A program made the translations under genes and the position numbers. DNA of 64,000 nucleotides from a gamma proteobacterium symbiont of Ctena orbiculata (GTDB lineage: Bacteria > Pseudomonadota > Gammaproteobacteria > Chromatiales > Chromatiaceae). The stretch lies in NCBI GenBank assembly GCA_003058495.1, contig QBVC01000008.1, positions 19,164 to 83,163 of the forward strand, in the 5' to 3' direction. Position 1 is the first letter of the stretch. Every line of letters begins with the position of its first letter. Shown here in pieces: positions 27,536-37,217 of this stretch. Under the pieces are notes generated by a model. The model was not told the DNA's origin. It saw only the letters and a program-made list of their open reading frames with translations, and searched no databases.

Positions 27536-27976
27536 TTATACAGCCCGGGCAAAGACCCCTGACTTTTCTAGTGTTGGAATCAGGATCGTCTCTTCGCGCT
27601 GTATGCGGTCCTCGATCATGTCAAAGATCTCGAATGTATCGGCGATAAACTCATCGGTGAAGTTAAAGTCACAGTTTTTAAGCCAGCGGCCTTGGTACTG
27701 CTCGAACTGCTTTCGCATCGGTTTCTGGCCATTCAGGAATCCCCACGCCATCGACTTCAGCTTCGGGTCATGATGAGTCAGCAAATCTGGGTAGATACCT
27801 CTATCCTGCTCGGACATGTGGAGCTTCATCTTATCTGCAAGATCACAGATCATCTTGTGAGCCGTCATCGCGTTCGGACGTATACTCAACTGCTCCCTGG
27901 TCATCATAGCCCGTAGATCACTGATGATTTCCTGCATATCAGTATGACTGCCTTTCAGGCTTTCTAAATTAGTCAC
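27536..27976 (-). CDS. Hemerythrin/HHE cation-binding domain protein
   Basis: H..., LHMSEQDRGIYP and RIQREETILIP pattern of the four-helix HHE family. Confidence 0.7.
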   Translation of the reverse strand: MTNLESLKGSHTDMQEIISDLRAMMTREQLSIRPNAMTAHKMICDLADKMKLHMSEQDRGIYPDLLTHHDPKLKSMAWGFLNGQKPMRKQFEQYQGRWLKNCDFNFTDEFIADTFEIFDMIEDRIQREETILIPTLEKSGVFARAV

Positions 27977-28199
27977 GTTCCACCCTCCATTTAATCGTTA
28001 GCCCCCTGCCCTGTGTCACAGGTACAAGCAACGCCTAAAACAAAATACGCCACCCGATCTTCGTCGGATTGGGCATACTACACTCAAGCTTGCACCATTA
28101 CTTGAGAAATGGCAATAGATACAGGTCATTAGAAGCTTATTATTCCAAACCTCAGGGGGATTACCCTTTAGTGTAAAGATCGCGAGTTAGGGTAATTAC

Positions 28200-28751
28200 C
28201 TAATCATTGGCCACCGCATAAATACCGGGTAGATTCCTATGGTATTCCATGTAGTCCATACCATAGCCAAAGACATATCGATCCTCGACCGTCAGGCCGA
28301 CGAAATCGGGCGCAAACCCAACCTTGCGCTCACGTAGCTTCTCGACCAATACCACACTGTATACCGACTTCGCCCCGGCGGCCTGGCAGGCCTCAACAAT
28401 AGCCGAGAGGGTGACACCTTCATCGAAAATATCATCCACCACCAACACCGTCTCGCCGGCCAGCGTGGTACTGGGTCGTCCAATCCACTCCAATGCGGCA
28501 CCACTGGTTTTGCCCCGGTATCGGGTCACGTGGATGTAGTCATGCCGCAGCGGGAAGCTGAGCCGTGTCAACAGCTGTCCGGTTGGGATGAGTGCGCCGT
28601 TCAACACGCAGAGAACCAGCGGATCCTCGCCGGAGAGTTTACCGGTAATCTCCAACGCCAGACGATCGAGTGCCTGTTCGACCTCGACCGTTGAATAGAT
28701 CTGTTCAGCGGCAGCCAGCACTTCGGCCGCTTGTCGTGCGGTTATCGCCAT
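28200..28751 (-). CDS. hpt: Hypoxanthine-guanine phosphoribosyltransferase
   Basis: PRPP motif VLVVDDIFDEGVT; DRYVFGYGMDY..RNLPGIY. Confidence 0.92.
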   Translation of the reverse strand: MAITARQAAEVLAAAEQIYSTVEVEQALDRLALEITGKLSGEDPLVLCVLNGALIPTGQLLTRLSFPLRHDYIHVTRYRGKTSGAALEWIGRPSTTLAGETVLVVDDIFDEGVTLSAIVEACQAAGAKSVYSVVLVEKLRERKVGFAPDFVGLTVEDRYVFGYGMDYMEYHRNLPGIYAVAND

Positions 28752-28796
28752 TGCGGTTTCCGTCCCATATATCAACTCAGCTCAGGTGTAACAAAT

Positions 28797-29846
28797 CTAT
28801 TCCGTGCCCAGATCGAGGCTGATCACTTCCGGCGCCACGGACAACCGATTAACGGCACGCTTCCACTGGGGGTCCTGGTGGAGCTGTTGAATCGTCTTCT
28901 GCTTGCGGCCATGCATTCTAACCAGGCGCACATGGGCGGCCGGATCTGCGTAATCCTTCAAGCGCTCCAATACTACCGTGGCGGCCTTTCGGTTATTGCA
29001 GATCAAAACCATGTCACAGCCGGCAGAGAGTGCCGCCGCCGCCCTGTCGCCATAACCGCCTGCCTCCTCGGCGGCGGCCATATTCAGATCATCGCTGAAG
29101 ATCACCCCTTGAAATCCCAACTGCCGCCTTAGCACCTTCTTCAGCCAGAATGGCGAAAAACCGGCAAGTTCCCTGTCGATATGGCTATAGATCACATGCG
29201 CCGGCATTATCGCCTCCATGCCGGCATGGATCATGGATTCAAACGGCCGTAGATCCTCCATTTCAAGATCCTCGAACCGGCGTTGGTCAATGGGCAGTGC
29301 CAAGTGGGAATCGGCCTTCACCCCTCCATGGCCAGGAAAATGCTTGCCGACCACCGCCATTCCTGCACCATGCGCCCCCTGCATCCAGGCCTTGGCCAAT
29401 CGAGCAACAATATCGGGTTGCGGGGAGAAGGCCCTGTCGCCAATCACCTCACTGACACCGAAACCGATATCGAGTACCGGGGCAAAACTGAAATCCACTC
29501 CGCAGGCCCTCAGTTCGGACGCCATCAACCAACCACCCAGCTGCGCCAACTTCAAGCCCTGTTCCGGACTTTTCCGATATTGCTCGCCATACCAGGCTGG
29601 CGGTGGAAGCGGTGTGAATCCATCTCGAAATCGCTGTACCCGGCCACCCTCATGGTCGACGGCGATAAGCAGGTGGGGATTTCTTATGCCGTGGATTTCA
29701 CTGCAGAGTCGTTCCAGCTGGCCGGGGGATTCGAAATTTCGGGTGAACAGAATCACACCCCCCACGGCGGGAAGACTCAACAGCCGTTTCTCATCCGCGC
29801 TGAGGGATCTCCCCTCGAGATCGAGCATGACCGGCCCCAGGCTCAT
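28797..29846 (-). CDS. nagZ: Beta-N-acetylhexosaminidase NagZ
   Basis: AVDHEGGRVQR, KHFPGHG..DSH and IFSDDL GH3 motifs. Confidence 0.97.
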   Translation of the reverse strand: MSLGPVMLDLEGRSLSADEKRLLSLPAVGGVILFTRNFESPGQLERLCSEIHGIRNPHLLIAVDHEGGRVQRFRDGFTPLPPPAWYGEQYRKSPEQGLKLAQLGGWLMASELRACGVDFSFAPVLDIGFGVSEVIGDRAFSPQPDIVARLAKAWMQGAHGAGMAVVGKHFPGHGGVKADSHLALPIDQRRFEDLEMEDLRPFESMIHAGMEAIMPAHVIYSHIDRELAGFSPFWLKKVLRRQLGFQGVIFSDDLNMAAAEEAGGYGDRAAAALSAGCDMVLICNNRKAATVVLERLKDYADPAAHVRLVRMHGRKQKTIQQLHQDPQWKRAVNRLSVAPEVISLDLGTE

Positions 29847-29992
29847 CCGGCCACCCCGCAAACAGGGGATATCGCAGAACAGTCCGTCGCCGATGTAGCC
29901 CCCATATCAGACCCCGTCAGACTCAATATTTCAGTCAGTATGCCGTAAACATAGGTGGAGTGGAAACCAAGCACAGCCCTGAAGGTATAAAC

Positions 29993-30406
29993 ATGCGCTC
30001 ATTCAAGCTACTACTTGCATTGTTGATGCTCCTTGCCATGCCGCTTCTCGCCGAGGATGAAAAGGACGAAGAGGAGGTCGAAGAGGCACCTCCGACCATC
30101 AGCTACTATCAGGTCAAACCCTCCCTGATCGCCAATCTGTCGAGCGGCGGCAAATATATTCGCTGCGATGTGCAACTGATGACCAATGACGAGCTCTTCC
30201 TCGAAGCGCTCAATATACATGGTCCGGCGATCCGCCATGCCCTGCTGCTTCTGCTCTCGGAACAGGATGGGAGGGACATCAAGACACCCAACGGCAAAGA
30301 GGCGCTACGCAAAAAGGCGCTCTCCACCATTGGCGAGCTGATGCAGGAACTGAGTGGCAAGAATGAACTGAAAGCCCTCTTCTTCACCACCTTTTTGGTT
30401 CAGTGA
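29993..30406 (+). CDS. fliL: Flagellar basal body-associated FliL family protein (orphan)
   Basis: N-terminal hydrophobic segment; IANLSSGGKYIRCDVQL, PAIRHALLLLLS and LFFTTFLVQ C-terminus. Confidence 0.85.
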   Translation: MRSFKLLLALLMLLAMPLLAEDEKDEEEVEEAPPTISYYQVKPSLIANLSSGGKYIRCDVQLMTNDELFLEALNIHGPAIRHALLLLLSEQDGRDIKTPNGKEALRKKALSTIGELMQELSGKNELKALFFTTFLVQ

Positions 30407-31206
30407 GCCGCCTTTGGCAGGCGTATATCGAGATAGTCCCGCAGACGATCGCCAAGCAGGTTGAGAGACAACACCACCAGCATAATGGTCACCCCCGGCG
30501 CCAGCACCATATGCGGCGCCATCAGCATGTAGCCGGCGCCATCGCGAATCATGCTTCCCCAGGATGCCTGGGGCGGCTGAATCCCCAATCCCAGAAAAGA
30601 GAGACCCGCCTCGGCGATGACCATCCCGGCCATGCCGAAGGTTGCCTCCACGATCAAGGGGGCCATCAACAGGGGCAACAGATGTTTTCTCAGGATCGTC
30701 AAGCGGGAACTGCCCAGGGCCACGGCCGCCATGACATGGTCTCGACGCTTCAATGACAACACCTGGCCGCGGGCGAGGCGCGCATAGCCGACCCAACCCA
30801 CCACAGACAGCGCGATGATCAAATTGTCGATTCCCGGACCCATGACGCCGGCCAGGGCGATGGCCAGCAAGATACCCGGAAAGGCAAGAAAGATATCGAT
30901 CACCCTGACCAGCAGCAGATCCAGCCAGCCCCCGTGATAACCGGCCAGCAGACCGACCAGGCTGCCTGCCAGGGCGGAGAAGCCGACCACGCCAACCGCA
31001 ACCATGAAGGAGGTCTGCGCCCCCGCCACCAGGCGCAGGAGGATGGACCGTCCGAGATCATCGTGGCCCAACAGGGCGGTGGGGCCGGGCGGCTGAAGAA
31101 TCCTTTCGAGATCGATAGCATTTCCCGCCTCGCCGAACCAGGGGCCGATTAATGCGGCAATGCCCCAGAGGGCGATCAGCAGATAGGGGATCCAGCGCCG
31201 GATCAT
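30400..31206 (-). CDS. Peptide/nickel ABC transporter permease (DppC/OppC-like)
   Basis: LGHDDLGRS, AFPGILLA, EAGLSFLGLG..SWG and NLLGDRLRD motifs. Confidence 0.93.
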   Translation of the reverse strand: MIRRWIPYLLIALWGIAALIGPWFGEAGNAIDLERILQPPGPTALLGHDDLGRSILLRLVAGAQTSFMVAVGVVGFSALAGSLVGLLAGYHGGWLDLLLVRVIDIFLAFPGILLAIALAGVMGPGIDNLIIALSVVGWVGYARLARGQVLSLKRRDHVMAAVALGSSRLTILRKHLLPLLMAPLIVEATFGMAGMVIAEAGLSFLGLGIQPPQASWGSMIRDGAGYMLMAPHMVLAPGVTIMLVVLSLNLLGDRLRDYLDIRLPKAAH

Positions 31207-32132
31207 CGCCCACCGCCGCCGTGGATCCGGGGATCGACCAGGCCATAGATCAGATCCGTCAGGGTATTGACCAGCACATAGGCAAGGCTGATGAAGAGCA
31301 CGCAACCCTGCACGACCGGGTAATCCCGTTTCTGGATCGATTCAATCATCAGGGAGCCGATACCGGGCCAGTCGAACACCACCTCGGTCACTACCGCACC
31401 TCCCAGCAAGGCCCCCAGCTGCAAACCAACCAGGGTGATCACCGGCAGCCATGCGTTGCCCATGGCGTGACGCCATATTACCCGTTTCTCATCCAGCCCC
31501 TTGGCCCTTGCGGTGCGCACGAAATCCTCGTCCAGCACCTCCAGCAGGCTGCTGCGAACCATTCTTGCGAGTATGGCGGCAAAGGACATGCCCAGGGTCA
31601 CCGCGGGCAGAATAAGGCTGCTCATGCCCTCCCTGCCGCTAACCGGCGTCCAGCCCAGCCAGAGTGAAAAACAGAGGATCAGCATCGGGCCCAGCCAGAA
31701 ATTGGGGATCGACAGACCCAGCATGGAGAAGCCCATGGCACCCCAATCCGCCGCGCGACCCCGGTTGACGGCGGCAACTATTCCCAGGGGAATGGCGATC
31801 AGCAGGGTGATGACCAGGGCGGCAAGGGCCAGCTCCAGGGTGGCGGGAATGCGCTCGGCAAGCAGCTCAGCCACCGCCTGTTTGGCATGCAGCGAGCGCC
31901 CCAGATCGAATCTGACGACGCCCTTCAGGTACTCCGCCAATTGCACCGCCAGGGGGCGGTCGAGCCCCAGACTGCTGCGCAGGGCCTCACGGTCCGCCGG
32001 CAGCGCCGACTCGCCCAGCATCACGTCCACCGGATCCCCCGGGACCAGGTGGATCAGCATGAAGACCAGACAGACGACGCCGACGATGACAACCAGGGCG
32101 CTGATGAGGCGGGAGAAGAGGAATCTGCCCAC
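31203..32132 (-). CDS. Peptide/nickel ABC transporter permease (DppB/OppB-like)
   Basis: PGDPV, FDLGRS, SIPNFWLG, RTARAKGL and DLIYGLVDPRI motifs; GTG start overlaps the upstream stop. Confidence 0.93.
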   Translation of the reverse strand: MGRFLFSRLISALVVIVGVVCLVFMLIHLVPGDPVDVMLGESALPADREALRSSLGLDRPLAVQLAEYLKGVVRFDLGRSLHAKQAVAELLAERIPATLELALAALVITLLIAIPLGIVAAVNRGRAADWGAMGFSMLGLSIPNFWLGPMLILCFSLWLGWTPVSGREGMSSLILPAVTLGMSFAAILARMVRSSLLEVLDEDFVRTARAKGLDEKRVIWRHAMGNAWLPVITLVGLQLGALLGGAVVTEVVFDWPGIGSLMIESIQKRDYPVVQGCVLFISLAYVLVNTLTDLIYGLVDPRIHGGGGR

Positions 32133-32617
32133 TATTCGACGATCTCCACCAGGGTGCCGTTCTCGACCCGCTCGAAAAGATCGATCAGATCCCGGTTGCG
32201 CATCCGGATGCAACCATGAGAGGCGGTGCTTCCCATCGGTTCCGTATCCGGGGTGCCGTGAATGTAGATGAAGCGGCGCAGGCTATCCACCTCCCCTCCC
32301 CTGTTCCTGCCCTTTTCGATGCCGGTCAGCCAGAGAATTCGGGTCAGGATCCAATCCCGCTGGGGCGCGGAGGCCGCGAGCCGGCGGCTAAAGCGCTCAC
32401 CGGTGGGACGGCGCGCGACGAACACCGTGTTCTCCTCGCAACCCTCGCCGATTTTCAACCGGATCCGGTGTCTTCCCCTTGGGGTGCATTCGCTTCCACT
32501 GACCTCCCCGGGGCCGTTTGCCGCGGTGGAGACCGGGTAGGTCTTTACGACCCGGCCCTCCTCGTGACAGAGCAGGCGCTGCTTCGACAACTCAATACGC
32601 AACTGCAATATGGCCAT
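32132..32617 (-). CDS. YkuD-family L,D-transpeptidase/carboxypeptidase, ElsL-like, no signal peptide
   Basis: IYIHGTPDTEPMG..SHGCIRM catalytic motif; RDWILTRILWL motif recalled from Acinetobacter ElsL; N-terminus lacks a hydrophobic signal. Confidence 0.88.
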   Translation of the reverse strand: MAILQLRIELSKQRLLCHEEGRVVKTYPVSTAANGPGEVSGSECTPRGRHRIRLKIGEGCEENTVFVARRPTGERFSRRLAASAPQRDWILTRILWLTGIEKGRNRGGEVDSLRRFIYIHGTPDTEPMGSTASHGCIRMRNRDLIDLFERVENGTLVEIVE

Positions 32618-34118
32618 CTTCCATCCCCTGTTGCCGCCGGACTCTTACCTGCTCAAGACCATCATAGTTCCCATCCCGCATCAATCGATAGCCGCTGATC
32701 CTGGGGCTCGACGCCACTACCTGCCCCTCATACCAGAGGGGCAAATAGGGCAGATCGGCATGCAGTTGTCGCTGTATCCGATGATAGAGCTGCGCTTGCC
32801 GCTCGAGTGAATCGGCTGACTCAAGCTGTTGCAGCAACCGATCGACAGCTACACTGGCATAGCGTCCACGGTTGGCGCCGGCCGGCGGCAGTGAGTCGCT
32901 GGCGAAGACATAGTTGAATATATCGGGGGTACGTATACCGACCCAGCTCAGGCTGTAGAGTTGAAAGTTGCCCGCCTTGATATCGCCGAAAAAGGTGCCC
33001 CAGTCGTAGCTGCGCAGTTCAACCTCTATTCCCACTGCCTTGAGCTGACTCTGGACCACGGTGGCAAGCCGGATCCGAAACGGATCGCTGGAGGTCTTGT
33101 AGACCAGGCGCAACGGGTTGGCGGCGCCGTATCCTGCCTCCCGCAACAGCGAGACCGCCCGCTGCGGATCGTAGGCATGGGCCTTCAATGCGTCTGCCCC
33201 CGCCCAATGCTCCGGCGGCAAGAGGGCCTCGGCCCTGCGCGCCGCACCCTGCATCAGGTGATGGATGATAGCCTGGCGGTCGATGGCATGGGCGATTGCC
33301 CTGCGCAGCCTCGGATCAGCTGTCTGGGGATCCCGGAGGTTGAAGCCGATGTAGGTAAAATTGCTGCCGTCGCGACGCTCGATTCCGATCCCCGCCTGCG
33401 CTTGGAGATAGTCGATCAGTTCAGGCGAGAGGTCGTTCTGCAGCATATCGATCTCCCCCCGCAGCAGCTTCAACACCCTGACCGTGGGATTTTTCACCTC
33501 CACGAACTCGAACCGTCGATTGTCCTCCCTGCGCTTCAATATCAGCCTTCCCGGCAGCGGCCAGGCATTAAAGGAGAAGGGGCCGCTGCCCACCGGGTTG
33601 CGGGCAAAGTCGTGATCGCTGTTGATCAGATCCGCGGGCAGGATATCCAGGGTCAGGTAGGCGGGAAAGAGGGGGTCTGAACGGGAGAGCTTAAAATCGA
33701 CGGTCAGGTCGTCCACCTTGACGATCTCTTCGATCATTGTGATTCCCGAACGTCGCGGCGAGGCATTGTTCGGATCCAGTACATAACGATAGGTTGCGAT
33801 TACATCGTCCGCATCCAGCCTTCGGCCCTGGAGGAAACGGCCCGCGCTTTGATTGAGGCGAACGCGGTAGCGGCGCGGCGACAGGCGTTGCCAATCGGCG
33901 ACAGCGGGTATCGGCATGCTCCGCTCGTCGAATGCCACCAGGCGTTGATAGAGGAGCCGGTTGATGCGTTCCGATGTGGCATCGGTGGCGTAGCGGGGAT
34001 CAAGCGTGATAGGTGCCGAGGCCAGGCCCATGCGAATCGAATCCTCCTCATACGCCGTGGAGCAGGCCAGGCTGGAGAGGGTGACCCAGAGGAGGAGTAG
34101 AGGCTGGCGCCATCCCAC
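32592..34118 (-). CDS. Peptide ABC transporter substrate-binding lipoprotein (family 5)
   Basis: Lipobox SLAC after GTG 34118; TLDPRYATDA, PVGSGPF, LRRAIAHAIDR and YDWGTFF motifs. Confidence 0.92.
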   Translation of the reverse strand: MGWRQPLLLLWVTLSSLACSTAYEEDSIRMGLASAPITLDPRYATDATSERINRLLYQRLVAFDERSMPIPAVADWQRLSPRRYRVRLNQSAGRFLQGRRLDADDVIATYRYVLDPNNASPRRSGITMIEEIVKVDDLTVDFKLSRSDPLFPAYLTLDILPADLINSDHDFARNPVGSGPFSFNAWPLPGRLILKRREDNRRFEFVEVKNPTVRVLKLLRGEIDMLQNDLSPELIDYLQAQAGIGIERRDGSNFTYIGFNLRDPQTADPRLRRAIAHAIDRQAIIHHLMQGAARRAEALLPPEHWAGADALKAHAYDPQRAVSLLREAGYGAANPLRLVYKTSSDPFRIRLATVVQSQLKAVGIEVELRSYDWGTFFGDIKAGNFQLYSLSWVGIRTPDIFNYVFASDSLPPAGANRGRYASVAVDRLLQQLESADSLERQAQLYHRIQRQLHADLPYLPLWYEGQVVASSPRISGYRLMRDGNYDGLEQVRVRRQQGMEDGHIAVAY

Positions 34119-34129
34119 GACAGGTTCCC

Positions 34130-34597
34130 CTACCAGTCGCAATAGGGATGAGAAACCAGACTCGCGTTGTAATAGCGGCTGTCCGTGGAGACCTCCTCTC
34201 CCGCCCACTCGGGCATTTGGAAAGCCTCATCCTCCGAACCCAGCTCCACCTCGGCGATAACCAGGCCGCGATTGGCGCCATCAAAGACATCGAGATCCCA
34301 GACATGGTCACCGCACCTCACCCGATAGCGCACCTTTTCGATCAATGCCCCCGCGCTATGGCTGTCCAGCAGCTCCTGCGCATCCTGCAGGGGAATGGGG
34401 TACTCGTACTCGCTTCTGCGGATGCCCCTGCTCCTCCCTTTGATGGTCAGCCGGGCCTCGCTGCCTGACACCCGTACGCGCACGGTGGCGTTGGGTTGAC
34501 TGGCCAGATAGCCCTGTTTCATGACCGATTCCCTGATCACACTGTCACGCCACTTATCGTTTATAACCAGATATTTACGCTCAATTTCTAATGCCAT
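34130..34597 (-). CDS. CYTH domain protein
   Basis: EIERKYLV, TVRVR, LTIKG, EYEYPI and AEVEL motifs. Confidence 0.93.
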   Translation of the reverse strand: MALEIERKYLVINDKWRDSVIRESVMKQGYLASQPNATVRVRVSGSEARLTIKGRSRGIRRSEYEYPIPLQDAQELLDSHSAGALIEKVRYRVRCGDHVWDLDVFDGANRGLVIAEVELGSEDEAFQMPEWAGEEVSTDSRYYNASLVSHPYCDW

Positions 34598-34630
34598 ACC
34601 TTATTTACCTGCAGGCAGCCGATGCGAGCA

Positions 34631-35965
34631 TCAACGCCTCTCGAACAGCGCGATGGATTCCACGTGCGCCGTGTGCGGGAACATATCCATGACACCTGCA
34701 CTGAGCAGGCGATAGCCCGCTTCGTGCACCAGTATACCGGCATCCCGCGCCAGGGTTCCTGGATAGCAGGAGACATAGACGATTCGCTCTGCGCCCAACT
34801 TGGGCAGATGCTCCAGCACCTCCTGGGCGCCGCTCCTGGGCGGATCGAGCAAGACCTTGTTGAAACGATGCATGAGCCAGGGTTCATTCTCCAGGCTATC
34901 GTAGAGATTGGCAGTATAGAACGCCACATTCTCGATTGCGTTGGCTATTGCATTCTCCCTGGCGCGGGCAACCAGTCCGCCATCGCCTTCAACCCCCGTG
35001 ACATGAGCCGCGGTCCGCGCCAACGGTAGGGTGAAATTACCCAACCCGCAGAACAGATCCAGCACCCTGTCGTGCGCCTCTAATTCAAGCAGCGAGATCG
35101 CCCGGCTGATCATCCTTCGATTGATATCGCTGTTGACCTGGGTGAAGTCGCTGGGCAAAAAAGAGAGCCGGAGATCGAAGTCCGGCAGTGAATAACTCAG
35201 GGATGTGGCTTCGAAATCCAATGGGCGGACGGTTTCGGGGCCGCCCTGCTGCAGGTAGATGGCCAACTGATGCTGCGGACCGAAGATGGAAAGCTTCAGC
35301 AGATCCTCCTCCGTGGGAGGCGAGAGCATGCGGAAGATCAGAATGCAGTCGTCATCACCCATCGCCATCTCGATCTGCGGTATTTGATCGCGGATCGAAA
35401 GCCGATCGATCAGCGCACTCAACGCCGGCAGCAGATCGCCTACCCGGGGATGCAGTATATGACACCGATCGATATCGGCAACGAACGAGGAACCCCGTTC
35501 ACGAAAGCCGACCAGCGTCCCGCCCTTCTTCGGCACATGGCGCACGCCGAGCCGGGCTTTGCGTCGATAGCCCCAGACCGATTCACCCACGAGGGGGCTG
35601 AGAATCTCATCGGGGATCACCTTGCCTATGTGTTTCAGGGCATCCAGCATTGCCTGTTGCTTGCCGGCAACCTGCGCCTCCGGTTTTTGATGCTGCAGGC
35701 TGCAGCCACCGCAAATGCCGAATTGGCTGCAGCGTGGCTCGATGCGCTGCACTGACGGCTCGAGCACCTCGACCACCCTGCCCTCGTCATAGCTGCGTCG
35801 GCGGCCGGTATAGATGAAACGCACCCGCTCCCCGGGCAGTGATCCATGAACGAAAGTCGCCTTGCCATCGATATGGGTCACGCCCTTGCCGTCATGGGTC
35901 AGGGATTCAATCTCCGCCTCAACCGGCTCCGCGGGGAGCGGCTTTCGCTTGCGTCTGCGCCCCAT
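34631..35965 (-). CDS. rlmD: 23S rRNA (uracil1939-C5)-methyltransferase RlmD
   Basis: TRAM domain, CGGCSLQH, DFTQVN, DLFCGLGNF, LDPPRSG, YVSC and DMFPHTAHVE motifs. Confidence 0.96.
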   Translation of the reverse strand: MGRRRKRKPLPAEPVEAEIESLTHDGKGVTHIDGKATFVHGSLPGERVRFIYTGRRRSYDEGRVVEVLEPSVQRIEPRCSQFGICGGCSLQHQKPEAQVAGKQQAMLDALKHIGKVIPDEILSPLVGESVWGYRRKARLGVRHVPKKGGTLVGFRERGSSFVADIDRCHILHPRVGDLLPALSALIDRLSIRDQIPQIEMAMGDDDCILIFRMLSPPTEEDLLKLSIFGPQHQLAIYLQQGGPETVRPLDFEATSLSYSLPDFDLRLSFLPSDFTQVNSDINRRMISRAISLLELEAHDRVLDLFCGLGNFTLPLARTAAHVTGVEGDGGLVARARENAIANAIENVAFYTANLYDSLENEPWLMHRFNKVLLDPPRSGAQEVLEHLPKLGAERIVYVSCYPGTLARDAGILVHEAGYRLLSAGVMDMFPHTAHVESIALFERR

Positions 35966-35966
35966 C

Positions 35967-36860
35967 TCAGGCCGCAGGGAAGACGTCGGTGGAGAGGTAG
36001 CGGTCGCCTCTGTCGCAGATGATGCAGACGATCACGGCATCTTCAACCATGCGCGACAGCCTCAAGGCCGCGGCCACCGCACCCCCGGAGGAGATGCCGG
36101 CGAAGATCCCCTCTCTGGCCGCCAGCTGCCGGGTGGTCTCTTCCGCCTCCTCCTGAGCGATATCGATGATACGATCGACCCTGGACGGATCGTAGATTTT
36201 CGGTAGGTAGGCCTCAGGCCAGCGTCGAATACCGGGAATACTCGAACCCTCCATGGGCTGTACACCGACAATCTCTATCCGCGGATTCTGTCTCTTCAGA
36301 TAGCTGGAGGTGCCCATGATGGTGCCGGTGGTGCCCATGGCGCTGACGAAATGGGTTACCTCGCCGTCGGTATCCCGCCAGATTTCCGGCCCGGTACCCT
36401 CGATATGGGCTTGAGGGTTATCCGGATTGGAGAATTGATCCAGGATCAACCCCCTGCCGGATGCCTCCAGTTCCCTGGCCTTGTCGATGGCGGCCTCCAT
36501 GCTCCCCTCTTTAGGGGTCAACAGCAGCTCGGCGCCGAACGCCTTCATCACGGCCCGCCGCTCATGGCTCATATTCTCCGGCATCACCAGTATCAGGTGA
36601 TAACCCTTGATTGCGGCCGCCATGGCAAGCGCTATTCCGGTATTTCCGCTGGTTGCCTCGATCAGGGTGTCACCCGGCCCTATCTCGCCGCGGGATTCGG
36701 CGTGGCTGATCATGCTGACGGCTGCCCTGTCCTTTACCGATCCGGCAGGATTGTTTCCCTCCAGCTTCACCAGCAGGGTATTGCTGCTGTCGCCGGGCAG
36801 ACGCTGGAGCCTGACCAACGGTGTATTGCCGACGAACTCTTCAATGGATTTATATTTCAT
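35967..36860 (-). CDS. cysM: Cysteine synthase B
   Basis: KLEGNNPAGSVKDR PLP motif, GIRRWP, CDRGDRYLS; adjacent to rlmD. Confidence 0.96.
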   Translation of the reverse strand: MKYKSIEEFVGNTPLVRLQRLPGDSSNTLLVKLEGNNPAGSVKDRAAVSMISHAESRGEIGPGDTLIEATSGNTGIALAMAAAIKGYHLILVMPENMSHERRAVMKAFGAELLLTPKEGSMEAAIDKARELEASGRGLILDQFSNPDNPQAHIEGTGPEIWRDTDGEVTHFVSAMGTTGTIMGTSSYLKRQNPRIEIVGVQPMEGSSIPGIRRWPEAYLPKIYDPSRVDRIIDIAQEEAEETTRQLAAREGIFAGISSGGAVAAALRLSRMVEDAVIVCIICDRGDRYLSTDVFPAA

Positions 36861-37217
36861 GGAGGGAATTCTACCCTGATTCTTCAAACGATCGCAGCAC
36901 CGAATTACCCGGCCCGTAAAAGGCTGATCCCGGACGGCTGATCGACATGGGCATTCAGGGATCTTTCGAATCTATCTGCCGGACCGGGATAGGGATTTTT
37001 CCGGAGATTCAAGTGATTTCATCTTCGCTCAGCCTGTCATCCTCCGGCCAGGTGTAAAAAGATGGTCTCGATGTTCTATTATTATGGGAACTCCGGTACG
37101 GAATCAGCTAACCCTATAGTCACATAGGCTCGCCTAGCGGACTGTTAAACATTCCGATCCAAGCCCCCGGGGTTTTATCGGAACTTACCCAAATAAAAAA
37201 ACACAGGAGGCATCGGC

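Follow-up and report, generated by a model that had tools for sequence, protein, structure and literature searches.

Recycling of the Gram-negative cell wall is taught as AmpG dependent, and to our knowledge the only ATP-binding cassette (ABC) routes are MppA-Opp in the enterics and YejBEF-YepA in some Alphaproteobacteria. YepA is confined to the Alphaproteobacteria (PMC9790009), and the toxicity of an ldcA deletion in E. coli is suppressed when MppA/Opp is lost (PMC10622912). Orthologues of ElsL, a cytoplasmic L,D-carboxypeptidase of Acinetobacter baumannii with a YkuD fold, have already been reported in many Gamma- and Betaproteobacteria (PMC8649774). Here, we analyze a gene cluster within a 64,000-nucleotide stretch of DNA (the window: contig QBVC01000008.1 of assembly GCA_003058495.1, positions 19,164 to 83,163) from a gammaproteobacterial symbiont of Ctena orbiculata, in which the genes for a family-5 substrate-binding protein (SBP), an ElsL-type YkuD protein and two permeases (permB and permC) follow one another on the minus strand near nagZ. 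We favor the reading, with a probability of about 0.6, that the cluster is a unit for importing and trimming peptidoglycan fragments; the cell would probably use it as a route, so far undescribed, for taking back fragments of its own wall.

An ElsL-type gene embedded in a transporter cluster

The genes of the cluster overlap at each junction: the elsL ATG lies 26 nucleotides (nt) within the 3′ end of the SBP gene, one base is common to the elsL stop and the permB GTG start (TAGTG), and permB and permC meet in an ATGA stop-start overlap, all three having been read from the sequence directly. Like PepT-family transporters, the cluster encodes a family-5 SBP and two BPD_transp_1 permeases; two oligo_HPY ATPase subunits are not encoded alongside the permeases, and no ATPase gene was found in the cluster or in any of ~160 related loci. 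The gap of 0.54 kb between permC and nagZ is occupied by a FliL-family gene, which overlaps the permC stop by 7 nt. Because this plus-strand gene converges on permC, nagZ is a separate transcription unit in this genome; the FliL-family gene is no part of the importer, but it interrupts the operon here.

The YkuD protein matches the NCBIfam ElsL model NF040925 at 192.2 bits (E 5e-57, positions 8-160 of 164). This is a narrow 'exception'-type model with a naming cut-off of 270 bits, and we therefore label the protein ElsL-type, not ElsL; the label rests on this model. The YkuD domain (PF03734, residues 8-159) is the sole domain of the 161-residue protein, without a peptidoglycan-binding domain, and the catalytic motifs are intact, with His120 in IHGT and Cys136 in SHGCIRM. 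The open frame is 170 codons long, leaving 9 codons from the upstream in-frame stop to the ATG, which excludes a signal or leader peptide; on inspection the N-terminus, MAILQLRIELSKQ, is not hydrophobic and there is no membrane segment. The protein thus shares the features given for ElsL proteins (PMC8649774): no signal peptide, membrane helix or peptidoglycan-binding domain, and a length of 105-200 residues. A PDB search with it found no close structure, the matches spanning the catalytic motif only. We read it as a cytoplasmic, ElsL-type enzyme and a predicted L,D-carboxypeptidase, an activity that in the ElsL family converts M4 to M3 by taking off the terminal D-Ala of tetrapeptide stems and leaves pentapeptide alone.

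Close homologues in Chromatiales relatives are publicly annotated as 'L,D-transpeptidase' or 'lipoprotein-anchoring transpeptidase ErfK/SrfK', which would fit an exported enzyme for peptidoglycan cross-linking or for the attachment of proteins to peptidoglycan, next to an unrelated transporter. Such a role is very unlikely: the 9 codons of upstream room and the lack of a membrane segment speak against export, as does the single-domain architecture, and ElsL is the best model whereas the periplasmic L,D-transpeptidase (Ldt) models match just the last 45 residues (E 1e-6 to 1e-7). The distribution of the protein is also complementary to that of LdcA, in that the sole genome with LdcA among 41 relatives is without ElsL.

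An earlier note on this DNA, made from its letters, had described an SBP, a YkuD protein and two permeases with overlapping stops and starts, and the junctions at the minus-strand coordinates in Table 1 bear this out, as the motifs and the 9-codon upstream room do for its YkuD protein with an intact HGT/SHGC motif and no signal peptide. It also placed nagZ about 0.55 kb past the last permease; the distance holds, although the FliL-family gene on the opposite strand was missed. What it called a transporter is present as an SBP and two permeases, but the absence of an ATPase gene from the cluster escaped it. The check for ldcA and ampG that it proposed gave a clear outcome: no LdcA was found in the genome, which is 99.1% complete, and AmpG is present, as are Mpl, AnmK and two Amidase_2 (AmpD-like) genes.

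In the mechanism that we propose, the SBP, a lipoprotein facing the periplasm, would catch products of wall turnover, either free stem peptides or anhydromuropeptides, and a PermB/PermC heterodimer would carry them across the membrane, with energy supplied by a fused YejF/GsiA-type double ATPase from a peptide ABC operon elsewhere in the genome (contig C24). The ElsL-type enzyme, translated off the same message, would trim the terminal D-Ala of tetrapeptide stems in the cytoplasm, so that Mpl would receive the tripeptide; the sugar part would be handled by NagZ, an AmpD-like amidase and AnmK. Since MppA/Opp loss suppresses ldcA toxicity, peptide import without trimming, with tetrapeptide reaching the Mpl route, is harmful, which would be the rationale for coupling elsL to an importer.

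Conservation of the cluster and its link to AmpG absence

Of the 24 genomes of the genus, 23 carry the order SBP-elsL-permB-permC. Only G007 (98% complete) departs from it: SBP, elsL and permB are missing together there, and fliL-nagZ-hpt is retained. We also sampled 400 genomes drawn evenly from the Gammaproteobacteria (240 families). ElsL is found in 302 of these, and a single-copy SBP orthologue, 45-60% identical, in 115; in ~70 of the ~80 genomes for which both coordinates were listed (compared by hand), elsL immediately follows the SBP gene on the same strand. Among 40 class-wide loci that were fetched, the usual order is (cysM)-rlmD-CYTH-SBP-elsL-permB-permC-nagZ-...-hpt-mtnP, and the SBP-elsL-permB-permC-nagZ order recurs in dozens of gammaproteobacterial families. 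Permeases follow elsL in 29 of the 40 loci, with nagZ 12-209 nt past permC in 24 of the 29. A further 80 named loci agree, including those of Sedimenticolaceae, Thiorhodococcus, Imhoffiella and other Chromatiaceae, Ectothiorhodospiraceae, Candidatus (Ca.) Tenderia and tubeworm symbionts.

Departures from this order keep its parts. Ten genomes without a permease after elsL have the orthologous permB elsewhere, usually followed by permC and nagZ, and in another type of split CYTH-SBP lies apart from elsL-permB-permC-nagZ; split clusters retain all parts elsewhere in the genome. Genomes without the SBP show CYTH-elsL-nagZ-hpt-mtnP, and some loci read SBP-permB-permC-nagZ without an intervening elsL. 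In most related loci a CYTH gene immediately precedes the SBP gene, an AmpG paralogue or, where the SBP is absent, elsL. The FliL wedge between permC and nagZ is typical of Sedimenticolaceae and occupies the same position in two unrelated families (G295 and G414), whereas in most other families nagZ lies directly past permC.

Insertions within the cluster were seen as well. Two genomes of one genus (G128 and G311; loci L080 and L081) carry an ABC-2 exporter pair (ATPase and ABC2_membrane) between the SBP gene and elsL. We considered the ATPase-like match at this position as a possible importer ATPase and rejected it, as it belongs to this unrelated exporter. In several other families, insertions of 0.9-5 kb separate elsL from permB.

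A search for AmpG in the 400 genomes (TIGR00901, E up to 1e-50) returned 310 positives, and a strong association emerged between carrying the SBP and lacking AmpG. AmpG was found in 62 of the 115 SBP-positive genomes and not found in 53; the figures for the 285 SBP-negative genomes are 248 and 37 (odds ratio about 5.5-5.7, Fisher p ~6e-12, by hand cross-tabulation and ignoring kinship). When the 53 SBP-positive AmpG-less genomes were searched again at E 1e-5, 52 were without any match, giving 63 versus 52; 45 of the 53 are at least 90% complete. The AmpG-less carriers belong to 42 genera in 31 families; nagZ stays next to the permeases in at least 16 of these carriers. Families f76 and f141 each contain one SBP-positive AmpG-less and one SBP-negative AmpG-positive genome; we noticed no family with the reverse contrast, SBP-positive AmpG-positive against SBP-negative AmpG-less.

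Moreover, AmpG can occupy the position of the SBP. In G331 (contig C19, locus L200) and G067 (contig C162, locus L201), the gene between CYTH and elsL is an AmpG paralogue, giving the order CYTH-AmpG paralogue-elsL(-nagZ). These paralogues are 34-38% identical to the AmpG of the symbiont genome studied here. We note that G067 carries a second, canonical AmpG too.

Synteny, the ElsL-type protein in an LdcA-less genome, the joint loss in G007, the AmpG link and the AmpG paralogue in the SBP slot are all consistent with a murein-fragment import and trimming unit, as the earlier note had proposed, and together they give that proposal strong support from comparison. That note had further cast the unit as an alternative to AmpG or Opp/MppA. 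The comparative data support an import unit, but with AmpG present in this genome the importer would serve as an extra route beside it and not as its replacement. In many other Gammaproteobacteria the system appears to be the sole candidate importer.

Binding protein, cargo and ATPase

The GTG start at 34118 gives the SBP a signal peptide ending in Cys, MGWRQPLLLLWVTLSSLAC, and the lipobox Cys is kept in 82 of 84 SBP orthologues. The protein reaches no NCBIfam equivalog. Its best models are DppA (133 bits, cut-off 1005), GsiB and Opp4A, and a PDB search with it found no close structure, the best matches being of the DppA and HbpA types at ~130-140 bits. It scores 92.8 bits against the OppA model (cut-off 947), aligns with MppA structures over residues 283-509 only (the C-terminal half, 82 bits), and reaches 82 bits against PRK09755 ('ABC transporter substrate-binding protein'; cut-off 1098), which we take to be a YejA-type model. 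When aligned to E. coli DppA with phmmer, the SBP has Thr in place of Arg355 and Ile in place of Asp408, the residues that in DppA clamp the carboxyl and amino termini, respectively, of the dipeptide; the SBP family consensus at these sites is KTSSDP and SWVGI(K/R). The replacement of both residues argues against an ordinary dipeptide as the ligand, and Asp408 to Ile would suit an N-blocked ligand such as a peptide carrying N-acetylmuramic acid (MurNAc), although these are hints only.

Alternatively, the importer could take up free stem peptides only, as MppA-Opp does, with ElsL the one enzyme required and the links to nagZ and AmpG indirect. The embedded, translationally coupled gene is indeed elsL and not nagZ, the SBP at ~490 residues when mature is the size of DppA, and AmpG is retained here for disaccharide fragments; MppA/Opp itself moves freed peptides only (PMC10622912). 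We nevertheless find a restriction to free peptides quite unlikely. In AmpG-less carriers nagZ lies directly past permC, and NagZ requires an imported N-acetylglucosamine-anhydro-MurNAc (GlcNAc-anhMurNAc) substrate; the Ile at the site of the N-terminus-clamping Asp is a better fit for an N-blocked ligand; and the loci that read SBP-permB-permC-nagZ have no elsL in between.

The main rival to an import and trimming unit is inherited gene order: the importer would take up an ordinary solute (dipeptides, glutathione-like peptides or a metal chelate), and the positions of elsL and nagZ would be relics of a frozen housekeeping block. Several observations lean this way and weigh against our favored reading. 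The block cysM-rlmD-CYTH...hpt-mtnP, made up of functionally unrelated housekeeping genes, is as widely conserved as the cluster, and so adjacency alone could be inherited order; where clusters split, the SBP often remains with CYTH and rlmD. The types closest to the SBP are DppA, HbpA and GsiB rather than MppA or YejA, and NikA is also among its nearest characterized relatives. In family f265 of another class of the phylum (L213-L218), almost all sampled genomes have SBP homologues, 36-44% identical, that immediately follow an rlmD-like methyltransferase gene and precede a glyoxalase-fold gene, with no elsL, permease or nagZ found within 9 kb, a pattern that neither helps nor hurts either side much. 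In the genome studied here, nagZ and the permeases do not share a transcript, AmpG makes the importer dispensable for import, and the YkuD protein scores below the ElsL naming cut-off; the statistic for the AmpG link takes no account of phylogeny.

Frozen gene order nonetheless seems unlikely to us, in spite of these points. Against it stand the start and stop codon overlaps around elsL, the joint loss in G007 and the retention of all parts by split clusters. The AmpG data also speak against it, with AmpG absent in 52 of 115 carriers versus 37 of 285 non-carriers and with an AmpG paralogue in the SBP slot in two lineages, and the peptide-termini clamps of DppA are not conserved.

If the cluster is an import and trimming unit, it would need an ATPase from elsewhere. 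The genome has two family-5 SBPs in total, 24-25% identical to each other, and no Opp operon. Its oligo_HPY ATPases are just two tandem fused double-ATPase genes on contig C24: ATP1 (542 residues, YejF/GsiA-like) and ATP2 (665 residues, a DppD-DppF fusion), which end the one further peptide-type ABC operon of this genome (C24:158836-167024). ATP2 is present in 13 of the 24 genus genomes. It was considered as a dedicated motor and rejected: 11 genus genomes have the cluster with ATP1 only, and in G007 ATP2 is present although the cluster is missing. Among 25 carriers (many families; 10 single-contig genomes), there are two permease-B genes and usually one fused oligo_HPY ATPase; the second permease-B is 30-39% identical to the cluster permB and lies 2.5-5 kb upstream of the fused ATPase. 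With two permease pairs and one fused ATPase, the ATPase would have to be shared, and from these gene counts we infer that the ElsL-linked permeases borrow the fused ATPase of the second permease pair.

The flanks of the cluster are listed in Table 1. The CYTH gene ends 11 nt ahead of the SBP start and may be co-transcribed with the cluster, and hpt is a conserved neighbor downstream of nagZ, with no functional role implied. Between hpt and the methylthioadenosine phosphorylase gene lies an open reading frame of 146 codons (27536-27976, minus strand), whose position is kept in Sedimenticolaceae loci and whose product we assume, without a family-library scan, to be hemerythrin-like. A promoter and terminator scan of 28000-37200 gave counts not above those in shuffles.

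Table 1. Genes of the cluster and its flanks, with coordinates in the window
Feature	Coordinates	Strand	Length (aa, amino acids) and model matches
CYTH-domain gene	34130..34597	-	155 aa; Pfam CYTH 63.7 bits
Family-5 SBP lipoprotein gene	32592..34118	-	508 aa from GTG at 34118; Pfam SBP_bac_5 228 bits
elsL-type YkuD gene	32132..32617	-	161 aa; Pfam YkuD 85.6 bits; NF040925 192 bits
Permease B (DppB/NikB-like)	31203..32132	-	Pfam BPD_transp_1 160 bits, BPD_transp_1_N 57 bits
Permease C (DppC/NikC-like)	30400..31206	-	Pfam BPD_transp_1 110.8 bits
FliL-family membrane protein gene	29960..30406	+	Pfam FliL 73.5 bits
nagZ (beta-N-acetylhexosaminidase), cytoplasmic recycling enzyme	28797..29861	-	NF003740 461 bits
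hpt (hypoxanthine-guanine phosphoribosyltransferase)	28200..28775	-	NF006605 244.6 bits

Relation to known wall-recycling systems

ElsL, and ABC-mediated wall recycling in two forms, are already known; what is added here is the link to AmpG absence, the positional replacement by AmpG and the rule of one ATPase for two permease pairs. A literature search found no published description of an SBP-elsL-permBC(-nagZ) cluster, and the ElsL paper names orthologues without their gene neighbors (PMC8649774). If our favored reading is right, it would explain why NagZ, ElsL and Mpl are kept without AmpG in a large set of Gammaproteobacteria, many of them sulfur oxidizers or animal symbionts. It would also provide a transporter operon with its own detoxifying carboxypeptidase built in, and a clear case in the peptide-importer family of a single ATPase serving two permease pairs. 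For symbionts, Ca. Thiodiazotropha among them, the extent to which wall fragments are recaptured bears on what host immune receptors see.

The YkuD protein resembles A. baumannii ElsL in being a stand-alone YkuD domain of ~160 residues without a leader, and Cys136 is at nearly the same position as Cys138, which was mutated in ElsL (PMC8649774). Both occur in LdcA-less genomes alongside NagZ, AmpD and Mpl. The gene differs in being embedded in an ABC importer cluster, a context that the ElsL paper (PMC8649774) does not mention.

AmpG would share its proposed cargo class with the importer, and an AmpG paralogue stands in the same slot (CYTH-x-elsL-nagZ) in two lineages; the two occur in a largely complementary way in genomes that have lost one of them. 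AmpG, however, is a single-component transporter of an unrelated superfamily, the major facilitator superfamily, driven by the proton-motive force, and in this genome it co-occurs with the importer.

MppA-OppBCDF of E. coli (PMC10622912) is likewise an SBP-dependent ABC route for wall peptides that works beside AmpG, and there too an L,D-carboxypeptidase is needed for imported tetrapeptides. Unlike the system described here, MppA borrows the entire Opp transporter and is not chromosomally linked to ldcA or nagZ in E. coli, and by the model and structure scores given above the SBP is no orthologue of MppA or OppA.

A further comparison is with YejBEF-YepA of Agrobacterium tumefaciens (PMC9790009). 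Both are PepT-family ABC systems for wall fragments, proposed here and shown there, in AmpG-less bacteria that keep NagZ and AmpD, and both have hardware in common with a broad-spectrum peptide importer; the retention of recycling enzymes where AmpG is missing is what pointed to YejBEF-YepA in Agrobacterium as well. They differ in that YepA is an orphan SBP borrowing the YejBEF permeases and ATPase, whereas here the SBP and both permeases are the system's own, and borrowing would be limited to the ATPase. The SBP is also DppA-like and, judged by model scores, not a YepA orthologue, and A. tumefaciens is without cytoplasmic L,D-carboxypeptidase activity, whereas a predicted enzyme of this kind is built into the cluster here. 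We offer, tentatively and at a little under even odds, a broader proposal: the many AmpG-less Gammaproteobacteria (52 of 400 genomes, 31 families) would import muropeptides chiefly through SBP-elsL-permBC(-nagZ), a functional counterpart of YejBEF-YepA with its own SBP and permeases, a built-in L,D-carboxypeptidase and a borrowed ATPase.

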